The notes under the pieces are model-generated. The model was not told where the DNA came from, did not search any database, and worked only from the letters and a program-made list of their open reading frames with translations. A DNA stretch of 64,000 bases, taken from contig MFCA01000029.1 in NCBI GenBank assembly GCA_001775095.1, forward strand, positions 55,975 to 119,974, given 5' to 3'. The position numbers and the translations under genes are program-made. This stretch comes from Candidatus Curtissbacteria bacterium RIFOXYA1_FULL_41_14 (lineage in GTDB: Bacteria; Patescibacteriota; Microgenomatia; Curtissbacterales; GWA2-41-24). Below are positions 4,731 through 38,110 of the stretch, one piece after another; the first letter of the stretch is position 1, and the number at the start of each line of letters is the position of its first letter.

Positions 4731-4878
4731 CTCAATTTAAATTTCGAAATCCTAAATTCTAAATCCGAAACAAATCCAAATATTCAAAATTCTAAATTCA
4801 AAATACCTAATGTTCAAGAACTTGAATTTAGATATTGTTTAGAATTTCGTGCTTAGTATTTTGGACTTGCAAACAAAA
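4731..4878. repeat. AT-rich intergenic inverted-repeat element, family A copy 1
   Basis: cctaaattctaaatccgaaacaaatccaaat ... gaatttagatattgtttagaatttcg. The arms are mutually complementary. Related copies at 8069-8250, 14534-14701 and 17331-17422. Confidence 0.55.
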
Positions 4879-8068: not shown

Positions 8069-8250
8069 ATCCTGAAAAATTCTAATTTCTAAATCCTAAA
8101 TCCTAAACAAATCTAAATGACCAAAATATAAAATTTAAAACAATTTAAAAAAAACAAATTTACTTTTTTGTTTTTTGAACATTTGAATTTTGATATTGTT
8201 TAGAGTTTAGAATTTAGCGTTTAGAATTTGATTAGCTATTAGGTCAATTT
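8069..8250. repeat. AT-rich intergenic inverted-repeat element, family A copy 2
   Basis: tctaaatcctaaatcctaaacaaatctaaatgaccaaaata...ttgaacatttgaattttgatattgtttagagtttagaatttag. Nearly identical to 14534-14701. Lies between a gene 3' end and the next gene start on the minus strand. Confidence 0.6.
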
Positions 8251-9351: not shown

Positions 9352-9430
9352 GTTATTAAAGTATCAAAGGTATCAAAGGTTATAGAACATTATGCGTATG
9401 ATACTTGTGGTACTTCTGATACTTGTGGTA
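9352..9430. repeat. tandem direct repeats (gtatcaaag x2; 18-mer gatacttgtggtacttct x2.5)
   Basis: Seen directly. The 18-mer array encodes the SQVSEVPQVSEVPQVS tail of the GT4 at 9390-10535 on the minus strand. Confidence 0.65.
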
Positions 9431-10535
9431 CTTCTGATACTTGTGATACATATCTCTCGAGTTCTTCTATAAAGTGCTTTTTCGAGAATCTCGTCGCGTT
9501 CTTCCTGCAAACTTGTATCTTCCATTTTACCCTACTTAATCTTCCAATTGCATCTTGGAGTGCTTGCGCCGATTGATTATCAAATAAAATTCCAGTTCTG
9601 CCATCTTCGACAGTCTCACTGACACCGCTTTGCCTATAAGCAATTACCGGAATACCACAGGCTTGTGCCTCTACTGCAGCAATACCAAAATCTTCTTCCT
9701 GGGTCACTATCAGGGCCTGGCAATTTTGATAAAGTTCGCGAAGCTGCTCTCTTGTTACTCTGCCAAGAAACTCAATATCTCCTGTCCTGTCATCTCGAAC
9801 CAATCTTTTAAGTCTCGATCTATCCGGTCCCTCCCCGACTATTTTTAGACTTTTTCCCATATTAGATATTGCCTTAATTGCTATATCAATCTTTTTCCAT
9901 TTCACGAGTCTGGTGACCACTAGGAAATAATTTTGACTTTTAAGTTCCCAGTTGTGAACTTTGGCAACCTGGAAAAAATTTAGGTCAACGAACGGATAAA
10001 TTACTTCGGACTCTCTTTCGTAAAATTTTTTAATTTTTTTGCTAATATTTGCCGAATTCGCGACAAACAAATCAGGTCGACAGGAGGATACTTTATCCCA
10101 TCTTTTGAGCCATATTAAGATTGGCTTAAAAATGAGTCTTAACATAATTGGTAAATAATCAGCCTGAGCTTTGCGCCCGTATAAAAATCTTGGAATACTG
10201 TTCATATAGCAAATATGCATCGTTCTGGGTTGAGTAATAATTGATTTGGCGAAGCGGGTAGTTGAGGAGATTACAAGATCGAATTCATTGAAATTAAAAC
10301 TCTCAAATGCCAATGGGTAAAGTGGTAAAAGAGCTTTATACAATTTGGCAGCAAAAGGAATTTTCTGCATCCAGGAGGGCCGGATTCTATCCCGGTTTAT
10401 TGTGGAAGGTAATTTCTTCCAATCAACGAAGGAGGTATAGATTGGAGCTTTGGGCCAAATGGAAGCGATGGTAGCAAACAGACTCTCCGCTCCTCCGGCT
10501 TGAACGAAGTCATCGTGTACAAGGGCTACTTTCAT
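9390..10535 (-). CDS. glycosyltransferase family 4 with repetitive C-terminal tail
   Basis: GT4 architecture with EDFGIAAVEAQACGIPVIA donor-binding motif. C-terminus ends in a repeat-encoded VSEVPQ tract. Confidence 0.8.
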   Translation of the reverse strand: MKVALVHDDFVQAGGAESLFATIASIWPKAPIYTSFVDWKKLPSTINRDRIRPSWMQKIPFAAKLYKALLPLYPLAFESFNFNEFDLVISSTTRFAKSIITQPRTMHICYMNSIPRFLYGRKAQADYLPIMLRLIFKPILIWLKRWDKVSSCRPDLFVANSANISKKIKKFYERESEVIYPFVDLNFFQVAKVHNWELKSQNYFLVVTRLVKWKKIDIAIKAISNMGKSLKIVGEGPDRSRLKRLVRDDRTGDIEFLGRVTREQLRELYQNCQALIVTQEEDFGIAAVEAQACGIPVIAYRQSGVSETVEDGRTGILFDNQSAQALQDAIGRLSRVKWKIQVCRKNATRFSKKHFIEELERYVSQVSEVPQVSEVPQVSYA

Positions 10536-12394: not shown

Positions 12395-13594
12395 CTAGAG
12401 GCTGTATTGTACATAAACCTTAAGTGTCTCTCTGGCCATCTTAAGCCAAGAGTATTTTTGCACTTGTTCCAAGCCCTTTACTACGAGGTCGGACCTCGTA
12501 GTTGTATCTGTGAGGACTTTTTGGATTTTTCTGGATATATCTTTTGGATCCTCTGGATCGAAATACAATGCGGCATCCCCGTAGATTTCTTTAAGTGTCG
12601 GAATGTTTGAACAAACTGCCGGAAGGCCCGCGGCCATGGAATTAAGACCGGGAATTCCAAACCCCTCCGAAAGTGATGGGAATACATAAGCTTGGGCAGA
12701 TCTTAAGACTTCTGATAATTCTTTTGGCGGAATATAGCCAGTCAGGACAACTCCCTCCTCTAATCCTAGATTCTTTATCCTTTCTTTTAGGCGTTGCCAG
12801 AAAATATCCCGAGGACAGACAAGGATTAAGTGCAGCTTGCGCTCACCCCAGGGGTGTTTTTCTATTCTGTGAACCGTTGACTGTGAACCGTGAACTAAAA
12901 TCTTGAAAGCTTGCAGTAACCGTTCAAGATTTTTGTGTGGATAAGCATTCCCTATATAAATGATAAAAGGCTGATTAATATTGTATTTCTCCAAAAACTT
13001 TGAACTTTGAACTTTGAACTTTGAACTTGTTCGGAAGTATTCCTCTTCTGCCGCTTCGTATGTTACGACGATTTTCGCAGGATCAATTCGAAAAGTCCTA
13101 ACAATCTCGTCCTTAACAAAATTCGAGGGGGTGAGGATTTTTTGAGAATCTTTGACAGCATGATTAATAACATGTCGATAAGCAAACCTTTTAATTTTAA
13201 AAATGTAAAGATTCCGAGTCGTTGCGGATTCTTGTCTAAATCGATGATGGATCAGGTCATGAATTGTTACTATGAATTTACCTCTGTAAAAAACAGGCAC
13301 GTTAAAATGAGTAAAGTGTAAAAGATCTAAATTCTGGTTTGAAAAAATTTTTGGTAATTTAATTTGCTCTTTGAGAGAATACCAGGGGATATCTGCTAAA
13401 ACCTTTTTGAAATTTTTGGATTTTAACCTTAGCCAATCCCAGTTAGACCGGCGCAGAAAAATAACATACTGATTATTGTCATCTAAAATTGCGAGATTTT
13501 CGATAAGTTTTTCAGTATATTTACCAAGACCTGTACCTTCCGGACCGACAAACCTCGCATCAATACCAATTCTCATATATCCCCCTCTTGTCAT
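12395..13594 (-). CDS. glycosyltransferase family 4 (probable true start MRIGIDAR at 13576), carries heptamer tract and gtgaac-repeat insert
   Basis: MRIGIDARF N-terminus and PSLSEGFGIPGLNSMAAG motif. Extra loop GSQSTVHRIEKHPWGERKLH relative to paralog 23002-24141. Confidence 0.8.
   Translation of the reverse strand: MTRGGYMRIGIDARFVGPEGTGLGKYTEKLIENLAILDDNNQYVIFLRRSNWDWLRLKSKNFKKVLADIPWYSLKEQIKLPKIFSNQNLDLLHFTHFNVPVFYRGKFIVTIHDLIHHRFRQESATTRNLYIFKIKRFAYRHVINHAVKDSQKILTPSNFVKDEIVRTFRIDPAKIVVTYEAAEEEYFRTSSKFKVQSSKFLEKYNINQPFIIYIGNAYPHKNLERLLQAFKILVHGSQSTVHRIEKHPWGERKLHLILVCPRDIFWQRLKERIKNLGLEEGVVLTGYIPPKELSEVLRSAQAYVFPSLSEGFGIPGLNSMAAGLPAVCSNIPTLKEIYGDAALYFDPEDPKDISRKIQKVLTDTTTRSDLVVKGLEQVQKYSWLKMARETLKVYVQYSL
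12998..13029. repeat. heptanucleotide tract (CTTTGAA)x4 plus partial unit inside GT4 coding sequence
   Basis: Seen: ctttgaactttgaactttgaactttgaacttg, encoding SSKFKVQSSKF on the minus strand. Unit length is not a multiple of 3. Confidence 0.75.
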
Positions 13595-14533: not shown

Positions 14534-14701
14534 AATAAATTTCTAATTTCTAAATCCTAAATCCTAAATCCTAAACAAATTCAAATGACCAAAATACATA
14601 ATTCAAAACAAATCTTAATTTTTTGGTTTATTTGAACATTTGAATTTTGATATTGTTTAGAGTTTAGATATTAGAGTTTAGGATTTTTATTAGTTATTAG
14701 G
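14534..14701. repeat. AT-rich intergenic inverted-repeat element, family A copy 3
   Basis: Near-identical to 8069-8250 apart from the central ~25 bp, including the attaggtcaattt end that overlaps the upstream gene stop. Confidence 0.6.
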
Positions 14702-17330: not shown

Positions 17331-17422
17331 TTGTTAAACTCCAAACTCTAAACCCTAAATTCCAAATAATATCAAAATTTCAAATTTGAAGGTTTAGAGT
17401 TTTTGAATTTAGGCATCTGAAT
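17331..17422. repeat. family A copy 4 (short form)
   Basis: aaactctaaaccctaaattccaaa ... ttgaaggtttagagtttttgaatttagg inverted repeat. Lacks the central segment of copies 2 and 3. Confidence 0.45.
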
Positions 17423-19967: not shown

Positions 19968-20857
19968 ATTTTTCCTTTTGCTACCATAATATATCGATAA
20001 GAAGTTGCTAAAAAGACTCCCGTAATTATTAACAGTGCACCTAAAATCAGATTTAATTTAAGTTTTTCACCAAATAAAATAACCCCAAATATACTCGACA
20101 AAATCGTTTGCATATAGATATTAAGAGATGAAATAAAAGCCGATGTGTTCTTAATCAGAAATTGGTAACCTACAATAAATAGCAAAGCTATGATCGCTAA
20201 GCTCACTGCCATCAAATTTATTTTAAGATTAAAACTGTAGTTTAACTTCCCATTAGCTATTAAGGGTCCGAGGGCAAGAATGGAGATCATACATGCCACC
20301 ATAAAATTAGTGAGAGTAATTTCCCATGGATTAAATTTTCGAGTATTTTTTTTCGAGATGACAATATAAAGTGACCACGTAAGTACTGCAATACCTATTA
20401 AAAGATTGCCGAGTGGTCTGCCAAAAGATAAAATATCAGCCGTTTTGAATGAATTCCAAATTAATATGCTTACTCCAACCAAAGATAGGAGAAGACCAAC
20501 TATCTGGTTACCGGTTAATTTTTCTTTTAAGAAAAAATATCCGAGAATTGCCACTATTAAAGGGGTAAGCACATATAGGAGCATCCCCACTATTAAACTG
20601 GTGTATTGAATACCAATCGCATATAAAATTACATTGACTGAGAAAAGAATACCGGTACTGATCAAGAATTTATCAGAAATTAATTTCTTTATTAATTGTC
20701 TTTTAAATACAAACGGAGCAATTATCAAAAGACCGAGAAAGAAGCGAATTGCGACAATGGTTAATGGATCAAGATGAAATACTAATAACTTTACCAGAGT
20801 ACCAACGGTAGCTCCTATAAGGCTCGTTAAGAAAAATATGCCAAGATTTGAAAACAT
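19958..20857 (-). CDS. EamA/DMT-superfamily transporter
   Basis: Ten TM helices in two repeated halves, 299 aa. Typical drug/metabolite transporter architecture. Confidence 0.55.
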   Translation of the reverse strand: MFSNLGIFFLTSLIGATVGTLVKLLVFHLDPLTIVAIRFFLGLLIIAPFVFKRQLIKKLISDKFLISTGILFSVNVILYAIGIQYTSLIVGMLLYVLTPLIVAILGYFFLKEKLTGNQIVGLLLSLVGVSILIWNSFKTADILSFGRPLGNLLIGIAVLTWSLYIVISKKNTRKFNPWEITLTNFMVACMISILALGPLIANGKLNYSFNLKINLMAVSLAIIALLFIVGYQFLIKNTSAFISSLNIYMQTILSSIFGVILFGEKLKLNLILGALLIITGVFLATSYRYIMVAKGKIWT

Positions 20858-21453
20858 TATTGGAATAGCCTGGCGCGGCCGAGTTTGTAATGGGGGTCTT
20901 TGTTTTTTCGTTCTCCGATTACTTTGGCAGGAACGCCGCCGACAATTTCAAAAGGTTTAACCTCTGAGGTAACTACTGCACCGGCTGCTATCACTGAACC
21001 TTTGCCGATTTTTACCCCCGGCAAGATAGTCGCACGAGGACCAATAAAAACATAATCTTCTATTTCTACTTCCCCGTAGGTCGGATCAAAACCCTCAGAA
21101 TTGATATCGTGTTCCGAATTATAAATTAAAACTTGGGATGCTATATCTACATGGTTGCCAATTCGAAGCGGCGCTCGGCCATCTAAAAAACAGTGATCGC
21201 CTACAATTGTACCTTGGCCGATACGTACTCCATGAGGGTAAAAAAACCTAACACCCATATGTATAAATGAATGTTTCCCGATTTTGACGCCGGCTAGTCT
21301 TAGGAAAAAATTTCTAATTGAATGTAAGGGGATAAGCGCGCAAATCACTGCAAGAACCATTAGCTCGATATCCAAAAGAATATGGAAGACTCTTATAAGA
21401 ATTTTGGCAAGAACTTCCATTGCATTTAACTCCGTACCCATTCGGTCTTTCAT
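20857..21453 (-). CDS. hexapeptide-repeat (LbH) O-acetyltransferase, WcaF/WbbJ-like
   Basis: Left-handed beta-helix hexapeptide repeats (IGQGTIVGDHCFL..IGNHVDIAS..FIGPRATILPGVKIGKGSVIAAGAVV). Confidence 0.75.
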   Translation of the reverse strand: MKDRMGTELNAMEVLAKILIRVFHILLDIELMVLAVICALIPLHSIRNFFLRLAGVKIGKHSFIHMGVRFFYPHGVRIGQGTIVGDHCFLDGRAPLRIGNHVDIASQVLIYNSEHDINSEGFDPTYGEVEIEDYVFIGPRATILPGVKIGKGSVIAAGAVVTSEVKPFEIVGGVPAKVIGERKNKDPHYKLGRARLFQ

Positions 21454-21514
21454 ACCTACTAGACTATAATATCAGAATTTACTTTGCATATACTATATTC
21501 GAGCGGATCGCCTG

Positions 21515-21676
21515 ATAAACTTCCGAGGGCTAAAAGCCCTCGGTCCTGCCTGCCAGCAGGCAGGTATTGCCCTAAAAAGTTTACATGAGCGAGCAGAACA
21601 CTCGGAAGTATGTATTCGCTCCGCATTCATCCGTGGACTAAGAGTTCATGGTATTGAAGCGAGCGAATATAAAATC
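21515..21676 (-). promoter_or_regulatory. conserved hairpin-containing leader element upstream of acetyltransferase gene (copy 1)
   Basis: aaacttccgagggctaaaagccctcgg...attgccctaaaaagtttacatgagcgagcaga...gtatgtattc...gcgagcgaatata. A second copy at 38008-38110 upstream of the paralogous acetyltransferase has a compensatory change in the hairpin stem. Confidence 0.5.
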
Positions 21677-21690
21677 TGTCTTGATCCAAA

Positions 21691-22950
21691 TTATGAAGTT
21701 TTTTCCGAAGCAACTTTTTCGAGGACCTGTAGGGTAATTTTGGCGCATTTTTGCCAGGAAAAGTGCTTGATGTTGGAAAAACCATTTTTGACCAGGTCGG
21801 ATCTGATTTTTGGGTCAAGAGTCTTTTTAATACCGTCGGCTATTGACTGGATACTTTCAGGATTGATAAGTATGGCGCTACACCTAAGATCCACCCCTGG
21901 GGTGTTCTCAGGGTGACGTCCTGACTTCACCTCAGGGGTGAGCGAGTTGGCTCCTACTATTTCCGGCAGACTTGAGGTGTTGGAAACAACAACCGGCACT
22001 CCACAAGCTTGAGCCTCGATAACCGGAATACCAAAGCCTTCCCAAAGCGAAGGCAAGACGTAGGCTCGAGCTCCACTGATCAAAACTGGTAAGTCGGAAT
22101 CGGAAACGTAATCAGTAAAAATAACTTTGTTTTGTAGTCCCAAGGTCTTGACTTTTTTGAAAATTGAATCATAAAGCCAACCTTTCTTGCCGACAATCAC
22201 CAATAATAAGTTGTCGGTTATCGGTTTACGGTTCACGGTTTTTTTATTCCTGTGAACTGTGAACTGCCTGCCCTGAGCGAAGTCGAAGGGTGAACTGTGA
22301 ACTAGAATCTTGAAAGCTTCTAAAAGTCTTTCAAGATTCTTGCGCGGCTGGAGTGTACCGACAAAAATAATGTAATCGCTAGAAATTTTATATTTCTTTT
22401 TCATTCTATCAATAGAATATTTAGATTGCGGCTTGAAGCGATCTTTGTCATACCCCTCATAGGTGACAGTAATCTTCGAAGGAGCGACATTGTAATTTTT
22501 AACAATATCGTCTTTTGTAGTTTGCGAAACAGCAATGATATGGGTTGCTTTTTTGATGGAAGCTTTAGTACCAAAAGTCAGCTGAATAAGATCGCTTTTT
22601 TTAAAAAGTTCTGAATAATGTAGAAATGAAAGATCATGGATAGTTACTACTTGCGGCACTGGACAGATCCTTGGAAGGTAATGAGCAGTTGAGAAGTAAA
22701 CACTTGTTCTTTTGTTGACGATTAGGTGCAATGGTAAGGCGAGTTGAGTCCAGAACTTCCTAGGTCCGAGAACTTTGTACTGAAAGCTGGCAATAGGTTT
22801 TGGTAAATCAGGAAGTGGTTTGTCCTTAAGGTAAACAATAAACTGATGTCTTTTGTCTTTAACAAATTGCCAAAGTAGTTCAAAAGCGTATTGACCGGTA
22901 CCAACTCTGGTTCGTACATTTGCTTCATTTCCGTCTATTCCTATAAGCAT
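21691..22950 (-). CDS. glycosyltransferase family 4 carrying an in-frame repeat-derived insert
   Basis: MLIGIDGNEANV N-terminus and PSLWEGFGIPVIEAQACGVPVV motif. Extra loop SSPFDFAQGRQFTVHRNKKTVNRKPITDN is encoded by repeat 22224-22304. Confidence 0.8.
   Translation of the reverse strand: MLIGIDGNEANVRTRVGTGQYAFELLWQFVKDKRHQFIVYLKDKPLPDLPKPIASFQYKVLGPRKFWTQLALPLHLIVNKRTSVYFSTAHYLPRICPVPQVVTIHDLSFLHYSELFKKSDLIQLTFGTKASIKKATHIIAVSQTTKDDIVKNYNVAPSKITVTYEGYDKDRFKPQSKYSIDRMKKKYKISSDYIIFVGTLQPRKNLERLLEAFKILVHSSPFDFAQGRQFTVHRNKKTVNRKPITDNLLLVIVGKKGWLYDSIFKKVKTLGLQNKVIFTDYVSDSDLPVLISGARAYVLPSLWEGFGIPVIEAQACGVPVVVSNTSSLPEIVGANSLTPEVKSGRHPENTPGVDLRCSAILINPESIQSIADGIKKTLDPKIRSDLVKNGFSNIKHFSWQKCAKITLQVLEKVASEKTS
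22224..22304. repeat. composite element (gtgaact direct repeats flanking ccctgagcgaagtcgaaggg core) inserted in-frame in a GT4 gene
   Basis: ggttcacgg...ctgtgaactgtgaactg-cctgccctgagcgaagtcgaaggg-tgaactgtgaactag. Core is 20/21 identical to 731-750. A coreless version (gtgaaccgttgactgtgaaccgtgaact) sits at the homologous site of GT4 12395-13594. Confidence 0.55.
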
Positions 22951-22951
22951 A

Positions 22952-22986
22952 GTGATTAGTGATTAGTGATTAGTGATTAGTGATTA
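22952..22986. repeat. heptanucleotide tract (GTGATTA)x5 abutting the start codon of GT4 21691-22950
   Basis: Seen: gtgattagtgattagtgattagtgattagtgatta, one base after the minus-strand ATG (22948-22950). The whole 51-bp intergenic spacer is mostly this repeat. Confidence 0.8.
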
Positions 22987-23001
22987 GTCACTACACACTA
23001 T

Positions 23002-24141
23002 TCACTTTTCACTGCTTTTAACCACCTCCTCATAGACTTTTAAAGTTTCCTTAGCGGTCTTAATCCAGGTATATTGCCTTGCTCGATTTAGGCTAGCATT
23101 AACCATCTTCTGATAACTATCCAAGTTTAAATTTAAAACCATCTCGATTGCTCGCTTTATCTGGCTTTCGCTTCTTGGATCAACAAGAATTGCAGCATCC
23201 TTGGCAATTTCGGTCATGGAAGAATTATTGGAGGTAATTACCGGTGTACCACAAGCCATTGCTTCGAGAATTGGCAGACCAAATCCTTCATAAAGCGATG
23301 GATAAACAAAAACCCGGCACCCACTATAGAGTGCCGTAAGATCATCTCTCGGAATGAAACCTGTTGAAACAATTCGATCATTGTCCTTGAAACTAGGGTC
23401 TTGCCCCCATCCATGCTTCCCGGTTAAAACTAAACTTAAATTAGGATTTTCTTTCTGAATTTTTTCAAAGACATCGACTAATTTTTGAATATTTTTTCTC
23501 GGTTCCCAAGTTGCAACTGATAAAATGTAAGGCTTTTTAATTTTGTATTTTTCTAAAACTTCTTTTACTTTGTCATCATCCTGGGGTTTGAAAATCACAG
23601 AAGAAGCAAGATAGACGACGGTTACTTTTTCTTGGGGAATTTCTAAAAATTTCACAAGATCCTCTTTGGTCGTTTCGGAATCTGTAATAATCGCATCAAC
23701 TTCGGCTTTAACAATTTTAAGTCTTCGTTTCTGATTAGAAACTATTTTTGGGTGAGAAGAAGATGGAAAAAGATATGCAATCATGTCATGGACAGTGGTT
23801 ACTTTTTTTGTACGTTGCGACCTTACAGGGGGTTGCGTCCAATCGGATGAATGAAATACGTCAACTTCACCAAGAAATTTTTCTATGGGAAAGATATGCA
23901 ACTTATTCCAAAGAAATGCTAAAAGAAAGGGCGGATAATGGGTAATTTTGAACTCGACATTTTTGTATTGGGAAAGTTGTTTTTTGAAACCGGTCAATTT
24001 TTTATTGAGCCTCAGGGAAGATCCAAAAAGGATGTATTGATTTTTTCGATCAATTTTTAAGAGTGCTTCTACCAACTGCTTAGTATAATTTGAAACCCCG
24101 GTCCCGTAAACGATTTGAGAAATATCAATACCGATTTTCAT
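23002..24141 (-). CDS. glycosyltransferase family 4
   Basis: MKIGIDISQIVYGTG and PSLYEGFGLPILEAMACGTPVI motifs. No repeat insert. Confidence 0.85.
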   Translation of the reverse strand: MKIGIDISQIVYGTGVSNYTKQLVEALLKIDRKNQYILFGSSLRLNKKLTGFKKQLSQYKNVEFKITHYPPFLLAFLWNKLHIFPIEKFLGEVDVFHSSDWTQPPVRSQRTKKVTTVHDMIAYLFPSSSHPKIVSNQKRRLKIVKAEVDAIITDSETTKEDLVKFLEIPQEKVTVVYLASSVIFKPQDDDKVKEVLEKYKIKKPYILSVATWEPRKNIQKLVDVFEKIQKENPNLSLVLTGKHGWGQDPSFKDNDRIVSTGFIPRDDLTALYSGCRVFVYPSLYEGFGLPILEAMACGTPVITSNNSSMTEIAKDAAILVDPRSESQIKRAIEMVLNLNLDSYQKMVNASLNRARQYTWIKTAKETLKVYEEVVKSSEK

Positions 24142-26313: not shown

Positions 26314-27198
26314 TTATTTAAATTTTGGTTCTTGAAAAAAAGATCTAATTACGGAAACAAACACACCTAGATCGTAAATTATTTTGAAAACAACAAATGA
26401 CAATTGGCCCGTGACAGTTGACTTAAAAATTCCAATTAATATGGATACCAGTAAGTTATACAAAAATAGTGACCGAATTTTACGAAGTAGCGAACCACTA
26501 ATAAACTCATTTTTCCCAATCCAACGAGCTTGCTTGAAAACTTCCTTAAGAGATGTTGGGTTTGAGTGGAAATATACTGCACCAGGAGCCAAAGTCGATT
26601 TAATATTCAGTTTTCGAGAAAGACTCCAATCATCGGTATATTCACCAGTCGCATCGAAGCCTCCTACCTTATTAAATTCTTTTTTTAAAATTGCCCTGAA
26701 GACTGGTGCCTGATTCGGGTAATCTGGAGGTAACATTCGATCCTTGGGAACATTTCTGTTAATGTTCCAGCAAATTGACCAAATGTTATTATAATTAGCG
26801 ACCATTTCATTTTTTGAAAAAGTGCCGATCGTTCTGCTGTCTAGAATTGGATTAACTAAGTCTTTGATAAAATCCCTATCAAAGGTCATATCAGCATCCA
26901 CAAAAACGAGGATTTCGCCGTGGGCTTTCGATGCGCCAAGATTTCTAGCTGAGCCCGGACCTTTATGATTTTGCTCAAGCAATTGGAAATTGGAAATTGG
27001 AAATTCCCGACCTCGTCTCGACTTGGTCGAGGACGGGTTGAAATTTGAAATTATTCTGAGTGTCCTATCACTCGAGCCATCATCGACAAGAATAATTTCC
27101 ATTGGTTTATAACTCTGGCTTAAAAGTGATTGAAGACATCTTTTTATAACTTTCTCTTCGTTATAAACTGGGGTAACTATAGATATGAGATTATTCAT
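26314..27198 (-). CDS. glycosyltransferase family 2 carrying an in-frame repeat-derived insert
   Basis: ISIVTPVYNE...ILVDDGSSDRT...GPGSARNLG...FVDADM. Extra segment NFNPSSTKSRRGREFPISNFQ is encoded by repeat 26981-27054. Confidence 0.75.
   Translation of the reverse strand: MNNLISIVTPVYNEEKVIKRCLQSLLSQSYKPMEIILVDDGSSDRTLRIISNFNPSSTKSRRGREFPISNFQLLEQNHKGPGSARNLGASKAHGEILVFVDADMTFDRDFIKDLVNPILDSRTIGTFSKNEMVANYNNIWSICWNINRNVPKDRMLPPDYPNQAPVFRAILKKEFNKVGGFDATGEYTDDWSLSRKLNIKSTLAPGAVYFHSNPTSLKEVFKQARWIGKNEFISGSLLRKIRSLFLYNLLVSILIGIFKSTVTGQLSFVVFKIIYDLGVFVSVIRSFFQEPKFK
26981..27054. repeat. (AATTGGA)x3 heptamer tract plus GC-rich palindrome inside GT2 coding sequence
   Basis: aattggaaattggaaattggaaatt-cccgacctcgtctcgacttggtcgaggacggg-ttgaaatttgaaatt. 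The palindrome cccgacctcg/cgaggacggg has one mismatch. Confidence 0.6.
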
Positions 27199-28271: not shown

Positions 28272-28535
28272 ATTGGTAAAGTTTCTGCGGTCCTCGTTCC
28301 TCGATATCAGCCTTCGCCTTCGGCGAATCTGATATATCAGAGGAGTAATATTGAAACAAAGTTTCAAATTGATCTGCTGATATAAACTCGGAACTGCGGG
28401 CCTAAGAAACTTAAAATAGCAATTTTATACATATTGGTAAAGTTTCTGCGGTCCTCGTTCCTCGATATCAGAGGAGCAATATTGAAACAAAGTTTCAAAT
28501 TGATCTGCTGATATAAACTCGGAACTGCGGGCCTA
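28245..28535. repeat. tandem duplication (units ~160 bp and ~131 bp) covering promoter region and first 9 codons of GT4 27204-28271
   Basis: gaaacttaaaatagcaattttatacatattggtaaagtttctgcggtcctcgttcctcgatatcag[30-bp extra in copy 1]aggag(t/c)aatattgaaacaaagtttcaaattgatctgctgatataaactcggaactgcgggcctaa occurs twice head-to-tail. Copy 2 carries a 22-codon pseudo-ORF starting MYKIAILSF. Confidence 0.85.
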
Positions 28536-28566
28536 AGAAACTAAGAATTGCGATCTTGGTTATTTT

Positions 28567-34048: not shown

Positions 34049-34071
34049 TTCACAGTGGACTGCGGGCCTAA
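34033..34071. repeat. family C element (tgcggtcctcg ... ctgcgggcctaa) minimal copy
   Basis: Same terminal motifs as the boundaries of each unit in the 28245-28535 duplication. Inner part is a short palindrome ccacttcacagtgg. Confidence 0.45.
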
Positions 34072-34080
34072 CAATTTTTC

Positions 34081-37992: not shown

Positions 37993-38007
37993 TTATCGTT
38001 TCTAATT

Positions 38008-38110
38008 ATAAACTTCCGAGGACTGAAAGTCCTCGGTATTGCTCTTTAAGTTTACATGAGCGAGCAGAGTATGTATTCACTTTTGCAATCTTGCTCTGCG
38101 AGCGAATATA
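38008..38110 (-). promoter_or_regulatory. conserved hairpin-containing leader element upstream of acetyltransferase gene (copy 2)
   Basis: ataaacttccgaggactgaaagtcctcggtattgctctttaagtttacatgagcgagcagagtatgtattc...gcgagcgaatata. Stem ggact/agtcc versus gggct/agccc in copy 1. 3' part overlaps the last codons of gene 38077-39666. Confidence 0.5.

Follow-up and report, generated by a model that had tools for sequence, protein, structure and literature searches.

A heptanucleotide array as one arm of a predicted hairpin between two glycosyltransferase genes of a Curtissbacteria-like bacterium

The GTGATTA array and its genomic setting

The gene junction considered here lies in a 64,000-nucleotide stretch of contig MFCA01000029.1 from Candidatus Curtissbacteria bacterium RIFOXYA1_FULL_41_14, referred to below as the window. 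Two GT4 glycosyltransferase genes, both on the minus strand and both with Glycos_transf_1 and Glyco_transf_4 matches, meet at this junction: the upstream gene (23002-24141, 379 aa) ends with a TGA codon at 23002-23004, and the downstream gene (21691-22950, 419 aa) begins with an ATG that reads cat at 22948-22950. The downstream start is backed by orthologues, with which the alignment begins at residue 1 (MLIGIDGN). The two open reading frames (ORFs) are separated by a spacer of 51 nt (22951-23001) containing five head-to-tail copies of the heptamer GTGATTA, (GTGATTA)5, at 22952-22986 on the plus strand. Every unit is perfect, and a single base, 22951, separates the ATG from the first gtgatta. 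Based on Tandem Repeats Finder (TRF), the perfect period-7 run spans 22950-22988 (5.6 copies, 100% matches) and takes in the A of the downstream ATG at its end on the mRNA strand, where it reads (ACTAATC)5.6, i.e., five copies of AATCACT; the tract is bounded by the flank sequences GTAGTGAC and ATGCTTATAGG. A preliminary description of this DNA had reported a five-copy heptamer one base from the ATG, a 51-bp gap to the upstream stop codon and a repeat forming the whole leader of the downstream gene. All three statements are correct: the letters and TRF agree, and the tract reaches position -1.

Searches for three GTGATTA units, allowing up to three mismatches, returned four occurrences, all of them at this site, compared with 0.00 in 100 shuffles; a chance origin of the array is therefore excluded. 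The head-to-tail perfect copies, far beyond chance, make it a simple sequence repeat (SSR), which is single-copy among the sequences examined (the window and 180 loci). GTGATTA is also the lone heptanucleotide example of van Belkum et al., from Helicobacter pylori, as cited in PMC4692102; the shared unit is probably a coincidence.

With no more than 65% identity, the closest matches to the downstream GT4 protein come from Candidatus Curtissbacteria and further Microgenomates, a part of the candidate phyla radiation (CPR), and scans of the GTDB species genomes and of Joint Genome Institute (JGI) metagenomes returned no relative above 65% amino-acid identity. The window host is an uncultured groundwater bacterium, a Curtissbacteria-like CPR member. 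A first guess, made because the window has many heptamer arrays, was that these were cyanobacterial short tandemly repeated repetitive (STRR) heptamers; it was rejected, the relatives being Curtissbacteria and other Microgenomates. Members of the CPR are believed to live on host cells, to which they attach, and surface glycans are likely important for this contact. The whole window is a surface-glycan region, with GT2, GT4, PMT_2, Wzy_C and YfhO genes, a flippase, sugar-nucleotide enzymes and an ABC-2 transporter. Neighbouring genes are co-directional, with very short gaps. In our scan for promoters and terminators, the spacer gave no site resembling either and 22951-23026 none resembling a terminator, and the window-wide count of promoter-like sites equalled the shuffle expectation. 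The two GT4 genes are probably co-transcribed.

Predicted hairpin at the junction

On the mRNA, the junction reads ...UAU GAG GAG GUG GUU AAA AGC AGU GAA AAG UGA AUAGUGUGUAGUGAC UAAUCAC(x5) U AUG. A degenerate array of inverse heptamers (AGTGAAA AGTGAAT AGTGTGT AGTGACT) lies 5′ of the perfect run on this strand and was detected by TRF at 22988-23013 with period 7 and 78% periodicity; because the inverse array adjoins the perfect one, the region is a palindrome. The sequence 22948-23027 is predicted to fold as a single hairpin of -29.9 kcal/mol, compared with a shuffle mean of -11.7 kcal/mol (z -6.44, with 0 of 200 shuffles as stable), and folding within a 111-nt context gave an identical structure. 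The predicted stem comprises approximately 35 pairs and is nearly continuous. In its 5′ arm (23026-22988, minus strand), GGUGGUU is followed by a 6-nt bulge and then by four AGUGA-type blocks; the arm spans the last eight codons and the stop of the upstream gene, with the UGA in mid-arm. The predicted loop occupies 22987-22984 and is followed by the 3′ arm (22983-22951), in which all five AAUCACU units are paired and whose last paired base, 22951, directly adjoins the AUG. The perfect heptanucleotide array (22950-22988) corresponds to the loop and the 3′ arm. The preliminary description had missed the inverse array. The perfect array is more than a plain spacer, being the 3′ arm of a strong predicted hairpin.

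A structure of this kind could act as an RNA processing or stability element, i.e., an RNase III site or a barrier to 3′-exonucleases that uncouples the stabilities of the two cistrons in the manner of REP, Correia or hmw-type hairpins, rather than as a translational device. The length and near-continuity of the stem would suit such a role, as would the long hairpins predicted in four other spacers of the co-directional cluster (z -3.9 to -5.6) and the RNase III cleavage of the hairpin in the Haemophilus influenzae hmw leader discussed below. Nevertheless, the spacer has no U-tract or terminator-like site, and a search of Rfam gave no gathering-threshold match in the window, only noise with E values of at least 0.3. 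The AUG follows directly after the stem, unlike the GC-rich stem and U-tract of an intrinsic terminator. A processing element would also leave unexplained the flush placement of the helix between a Shine-Dalgarno-like motif and the AUG, described below, and we regard this explanation as unlikely here, plausible as it is for all five hairpin spacers.

Unit number and the predicted fold

The minimum free energy (MFE) of the junction with its flanks, calculated for zero to eight repeat units, was -24.4, -25.4, -32.0, -38.5, -42.1, -48.6, -50.7, -50.4 and -49.4 kcal/mol, respectively. Each unit from the second through the fifth contributes 3.6-6.6 kcal/mol, and the curve is flat past five. Because the MFE climbs up to five units and then reaches a plateau, five units, the number found in the common allele, exactly saturate the 5′ arm in the folding model. 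With four units, the predicted pairing shifts in register: the terminal helix formed by GGUGGUU disappears, and the UGCUU in the start region becomes paired with AAGCA. The earlier proposal that copy number alters the leader structure without a frameshift therefore holds for the predicted fold, the MFE of which changes from -25.4 to -48.6 kcal/mol between one and five units. The tract, filling the leader to position -1, is placed where, according to this model, changes in unit number could alter expression.

Copy number among near-identical strains

Strain-level copies of the junction were obtained through exact-protein look-ups, which returned groundwater metagenome assemblies and GCA_001775235.1, with 99.8-100% nucleotide identity to the window. 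Because the look-ups repeatedly returned a small set of identical contigs, at most nine independent near-identical assemblies could be compared. L179 and L180 end or diverge before the repeat and are uninformative. Five units are present in eight of the nine: the window, L001, L163 (a JGI contig, the same as L175 and L177), L164, L165, L166 (GCA_001775235.1), L176 and L178. Four units were found in the remaining one (L162, equal to L174; ERZ27254728 k141_935870). Over 5.1 kb, the sole difference between L162 and L163 is this 7-nt deletion, and an assembly artefact is unlikely to be behind the four-unit allele because both the k-mers and the reads exceed the 39-nt tract in length. The other heptamer arrays, all with no more than 4.7 copies, are invariant among near-identical strains over 16-17 kb. 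Additionally, no length change was seen in approximately 20 heptamer arrays of relatives that are 87-99.9% identical, which speaks against phase variation; array lengths were compared between relatives by anchoring on the flanks, since indel lists from BLAST high-scoring segment pairs miss repeat indels. The longest perfect tract of the window is thus mutable, without showing the multiple alleles typical of classical contingency loci.

These data bear directly on the phase variation suggested in the preliminary description, in the form of a true contingency locus, in which slippage would be frequent, reversible and selected, varying the expression of the downstream GT4 and, with it, the surface glycans. 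The setting in a 64-kb surface-glycan region is consistent with this proposal, and so are the occurrence of five and four units on an otherwise identical background and the precedent of a hairpin-forming, post-transcriptionally acting heptamer tract in the hmw 5′ untranslated region (5′-UTR). However, eight of the nine assemblies share one allele. Moreover, the tract has just five units, compared with at least 11 in natural hmw tracts; the remaining heptamer arrays keep their length in strains with 100% identity and in relatives with 87-99.9%; and, as shown below, such arrays are ubiquitous whatever the gene. A true contingency locus is, in our view, improbable at this site.

Other differences among the strains were also recorded. 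The sole other repeat-length polymorphism among near-identical strains affects a period-18 coding array of 2.8 copies at 9399-9449 (ORF 9390-10535), one unit of which (9428-9445) is missing in L173. Relative to the window, L001 has a 35-nt insertion at 20878, a 12-nt deletion at 20357-20368 and a 3-nt ATT insertion at 21681, near the hexapeptide-transferase and EamA genes, and L176 is without the window-specific SNP (single-nucleotide polymorphism) at 22085. The differences in L001 and L176 indicate that several strains co-exist.

Shine-Dalgarno motif and orthologous junctions

GGAG, GAGG and AGGA are all absent from the 51-nt spacer. Such a Shine-Dalgarno (SD) core was found at -22 to -4 in 7 of the 56 ORFs of the window, and translation in this genome appears to start largely without SD sequences. 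However, an SD-like GAGGAGG is present at 23025-23031 on the minus strand, within the YEEV codons of the upstream gene and directly 5′ of the helix base. In linear distance, this motif is 74 nt from the AUG; in the predicted fold, it abuts the helix base. The missing SD remarked on in the preliminary description is thus true for the spacer; it is not diagnostic, since 49 of the 56 ORFs are alike in this respect, and it overlooks the GAGGAGG 5′ of the hairpin.

Synteny of the GT4-GT4 gene pair is preserved at 58 distinct junctions. The gap from the end of the upstream protein alignment to the downstream start measures no more than 12 nt in 28 of these, a distance typical of translational coupling. 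An SD core at -25 to -5 is present in 18 of these 28 tight junctions, compared with the window background of 7 in 56 ORFs. The core lies in the codons homologous to YEEV even where these encode other residues, as in AAGGAGG (YKEV), CAGGAGG (YQEA), TAGGAGG (YRRL) and GGGAGG (YGRL). Because the core persists where the amino acids differ, the alignment points to a nucleotide-level constraint, with the putative SD of the downstream GT4 embedded in the upstream gene. Judging from this conservation, the GAGGAGG of the window would be the ancestral ribosome-binding site of the downstream GT4.

Two Curtissbacteria-like junctions have the same architecture at the GT4-GT4 junction as the window, built from heptamers of different sequence: L014, with the unit TAAACTA/TGAACTA and a folding z-score of -6.41, and L003, with the unit CTAGTNN and a z-score of -3.13. 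In two further Curtissbacteria-like relatives, the junction is likewise expanded by heptamer palindromes. Weaker folding was obtained for these: L083, which combines TAGTTNN with inverted NNAACTA units (z -1.6), and L084, which has mixed 7/8-nt units (z -1.95).

In L002 and L083, a duplicated eight-codon remnant of the gene start (MLIGIDGN / MFIGVDGN) precedes the start of the GT4 orthologue; it is followed by a conserved element of approximately 32 nt, ATCAGCTCTCG(C/T)TTC(G/A)CTCGC(C/T)GGATATTTCC, and then by the full-length gene. The arrangement suggests a small insertion by which the 5′ end of the target gene is restored. Large insertions in the GT4 orthologues, considered on account of tblastn spans of 1.7-1.8 kb, were rejected: the upstream paralogue had been merged into the match.

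Heptamer arrays in Microgenomates

Among periods 4-12, perfect arrays of at least three copies occur in the window only at period 7 (four arrays). Our analysis of 140 non-redundant Microgenomates loci (989 kb) identified 33 perfect heptamer arrays of at least three copies, with none in shuffles; in the same sequences, period 8 gave five arrays and each remaining period from 5 to 12 at most two. A larger set of 162 sequences, consisting of the fetched loci and the window (approximately 1.18 Mb, duplicates included), was scanned with TRF at a score of at least 50 and contained 56 arrays of period 7, 26 of period 14 and 12 of period 21; of the remaining periods, period 18 alone exceeded seven arrays (12 arrays). 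The period is conserved and the sequence varies, with 56 different canonical heptamer units. The arrays are located both in intergenic spacers and in-frame within genes, as in the variable loops of the GT4/GT2 genes at 22222-22300, 12869-13028 and 26981-27052. Period-7 arrays are thus ubiquitous rather than specific to a variable gene, and a repeat beside a glycosyltransferase gene does not by itself point to a contingency locus where heptamers are lineage-wide, present in-frame within coding sequences as well as at many junctions. Heptameric repeats have been described as over-represented in some bacteria, with polymerase slippage proposed as the cause (PMC4692102), and our literature search found no report of a heptamer excess for CPR.

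The variety of units also bears on a function at the DNA level, such as a protein-binding array (iteron or operator) or an element that sets promoter spacing. The sole support for such a function is the regular 7-bp phasing. The unit differs at each locus, arrays also occur within ORFs, GTGATTA is found in array form nowhere else in the window, and there is no promoter-like site at or around the array. A DNA-level role is accordingly very improbable.

Proposed mechanism

Our preferred explanation, to which we assign a probability of roughly 45%, is that a slippage-prone heptamer has been tolerated in a translationally coupled junction as an insertion that folds into a hairpin, and that its unit number tunes the expression of the downstream GT4. 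The array would be a slippage-generated heptanucleotide repeat of the type that pervades Microgenomates genomes and, together with its decayed inverse array, would constitute a palindromic insertion of approximately 75 nt in an ancestrally tight, coupled GT4-GT4 junction. In the polycistronic mRNA, this insertion would fold as one long hairpin and, being looped out in this way, would be tolerated. The ancestral SD-like GAGGAGG would then directly adjoin one end of the helix and the AUG the other, so that the two form a "split" ribosome-binding site. Alternatively, a ribosome terminating at the upstream UGA would have to melt the entire 5′ arm, freeing the G-less, unstructured 3′ arm before the AUG. 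By either route, initiation of the downstream GT4 would depend on the helix. Five units saturate the predicted 5′ arm; the loss or gain of a unit would change the stability and register of the helix, and the output of the downstream gene would be graded, as with a rheostat and not an on/off switch. We infer that the hairpin folds in vivo, affects translation and has a selective value.

Several observations weigh against this proposal. The geometry of L014 is less flush than that of the window, the hairpins of L083 and L084 are weak, and the more distant orthologues L154/L037, L138 and L048 carry direct, G-poor, unstructured arrays that abut the ATG. SD sequences are rarely used in the genome, so the GAGGAGG could persist merely for the YEEV peptide, although orthologues with other residues there keep the motif. 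In size, a helix of 35 pairs separating the SD from the AUG far exceeds the phage T4 precedents discussed below. The equal lengths of the two arms could stem from an inverted duplication instead of selection, and just one variant allele was found. Additionally, among 87 non-redundant arrays, an inverted partner within 120 nt showed no enrichment over reversed or complemented controls, a weak test in AT-rich sequence, which was replaced by the folding z-scores.

Some of these observations agree with a neutral origin, in which the array would be a by-product of lineage-wide slippage or mobile-repeat activity, the hairpin a relic of how the array arose, and the copy number free to drift without consequence. 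The 56 different units scattered over approximately 1 Mb of Microgenomates DNA, including in-frame positions in protein loops, are as expected from such a process, as are the length stability of arrays between relatives, the unstructured direct arrays at the same junction in other genomes, the lack of a general enrichment of inverted partners and the initiation of most window genes without an SD. On the other hand, the modal allele fits the length of the 5′ arm exactly, despite the unequal decay of the arms (100% versus 78% periodicity); in three lineages whose units are unrelated, a predicted hairpin separates the AUG from the conserved GAGGAGG; and a helix of -30 kcal/mol that reaches position -1 is unlikely to go unnoticed by initiation in a genome dependent on unstructured leaders. 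A neutral by-product is a serious possibility, toward which we nevertheless do not lean.

A broader reading would extend the proposed tuning of the downstream GT4 to the lineage. A lineage-wide heptamer-generating process might seed modules, namely palindromic heptamers and arrays with nested GC-rich cores, at the junctions and surface loops of glycan-synthesis genes, and at coupled junctions like the present one the modules might serve as length-variable, hairpin-bridged ribosome-binding sites, offering these host-dependent, ultrasmall bacteria a heritable and tunable means to diversify their surface glycans. As a joint claim, this is speculative, and we think it rather improbable.

Comparison with known systems

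By analogy, the leader of hmw1A/hmw2A in Haemophilus influenzae is the closest described system. Its (ATCTTTC)n repeat forms one arm of a hairpin in the 5′-UTR, and expression is inverse to the repeat number and RNase III-dependent (PMC12721329). The two systems share a 7-nt repeat in the leader of a surface-structure gene (the GTGATTA leader presumably being transcribed), a repeat that pairs with a complementary, purine-rich partner and so makes up one side of a long, stable hairpin, and a leader structure that changes with unit number without a frameshift, the last two being predictions at the GTGATTA site. They differ in that hmw has its own promoter, a repeat in the left (5′) arm, a demonstrated RNase III effect and at least 11 units in natural tracts. 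The GTGATTA tract, known from its sequence and predicted fold, has just four or five units, forms the 3′ arm, pairs with the end of the upstream coding sequence and is intercistronic, in a CPR bacterium.

A split ribosome-binding site in which a hairpin restores the SD-AUG spacing has been described for genes 38 and 25 of phage T4, the latter at the gene 26-25 intercistronic junction (PMC3014915). As proposed for the GTGATTA site, an SD and an AUG that are distant in the linear sequence are brought together by the intervening hairpin, and, as in gene 25, the arrangement is intercistronic with the SD within the upstream gene. The T4 hairpins remove 16-17 nt, whereas the one predicted here would remove approximately 74 nt through approximately 35 pairs, is made of a length-variable tandem repeat and belongs to a genome with low SD usage.

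The genome-wide, mostly intergenic excess of period 7 resembles that of the cyanobacterial STRR sequences and of the GGGAATC-type repeats of Xanthomonas and Nostoc (PMC4692102), with which the Microgenomates arrays also share some inverted pairs, nested GC-rich short cores and a proposed slippage origin. They differ in the CPR/Microgenomates host, in their AT-rich and diverse units and in that many are in-frame within glycosyltransferase genes. The heterocystous host and canonical units of STRR sequences are absent here, the relatives being Microgenomates.

The classical SSR contingency loci, such as those for lipopolysaccharide or lipooligosaccharide (LPS/LOS) in H. influenzae, Neisseria and Campylobacter (see also PMC2651432), likewise involve surface-glycan glycosyltransferases and copy-number polymorphism. 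These loci have units of 1-5 nt, mostly within the ORF, and long tracts that switch genes on and off by frameshift. In contrast, the GTGATTA tract is short, has a 7-nt unit outside the ORF and is predicted to have a graded effect at most.

The feature joins a heptamer SSR with a predicted leader hairpin and a putative ribosome-binding site, split or coupled, a combination that is not known to have been described in the Microgenomates/CPR lineage. To our knowledge, almost nothing is known about gene regulation in CPR bacteria, and their genetic manipulation is not possible. If the proposed mechanism is true, the junction is a candidate for heritable tuning of the expression of a CPR glycosyltransferase, and it extends the heptamer-repeat/RNA-hairpin mechanism of hmw to an intercistronic setting. 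If the array is inert, it cautions against equating a repeat beside a glycosyltransferase gene with phase variation where repeats abound. The period-7 excess itself bears on the old question of why heptamers are over-represented in some bacterial genomes.

Palindromic spacers and nested repeats

Hairpin-forming insertions are known from the repetitive extragenic palindromic (REP) sequences and bacterial interspersed mosaic elements (BIME), from the Correia elements of Neisseria and from the palindromic elements of Rickettsia, the last of which insert in-frame in genes, as some related elements of the window also do. The GTGATTA palindrome is similar in being a predicted hairpin insertion at a gene junction, probably within an operon; it differs in being single-copy, with arms made of tandem heptamers, and we know of no transposase associated with it. 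Dispersed copies of the GTGATTA array were sought in the window and 180 loci and not found. The AT-rich hairpin spacers of the same gene cluster do behave as dispersed elements. Four such spacers, at 4731-4878, 8069-8250, 14534-14701 and 17331-17422, are the long hairpins mentioned above, formed by inverted heptamer arrays with arms of the type (TCTAAAC)n ... (GTTTAGG/A)n. Their 3′ arms contain repeated AGGA/GGAG just upstream of the next start codon. One element is represented twice, at 8069-8250 and 14534-14701, by clear dispersed copies with a difference of exactly one heptamer in the arms.

Within the downstream GT4 gene, the in-frame insertion at 22222-22300 (minus strand) comprises two AGTTCAC units, the GC-rich core CCTTCGACTTCGCTCAGGGCAGG, two CAGTTCA units and inverse heptamers of the GTGAACC type, and it encodes ...VHSSPFDFAQGRQFTVHRNKKTVNRKPITDN... 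in the variable loop after the AFKIL helix. The CCTTCGACTTCGCTCAGGGCAGG core recurs at 728-750 with two mismatches, where zero occurrences are expected by chance, and a related copy is present in L049. In a second GT4 paralogue (ORF 12395-13594), the array at 12869-13028 (minus strand) includes a perfect in-frame (CAAAGTT)4.7 in the interdomain linker, and GTTCAC-type heptamers occupy the same post-AFKIL loop position as in the downstream GT4.

GC-rich cores of 19-31 nt and 63-81% GC are nested in heptamer arrays that have one unit on both sides. They were found in the window at 26981-27052 and in unrelated Microgenomates genomes: L025 (4655-4717), L087 (2523-2584), L150 (2303-2364) and L056 (4093-4143). 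In L025, the unit is AATCACT, as in the array at 22950-22988, and it is located inside the orthologous GT4. The nested cores resemble the small dispersed repeats that Elhai et al. (2008) reportedly described within the heptamer arrays of Nostocaceae.

Two further repeats were observed in spacers of the window. The dispersed repeat CTCGCTCATGTAAACTT...CCGAGGNCTTTNAGCCCTCGGAAGTTTAT, with a GC hairpin, is present in the two spacers at 21454-21690 and 37993-38076. Additionally, TTCTTAGGCCCGCAGTTCCGAGTTTATATCAGCAGATCAAT occurs twice within one spacer (28368-28566), and a related piece is found in another (34049-34080).

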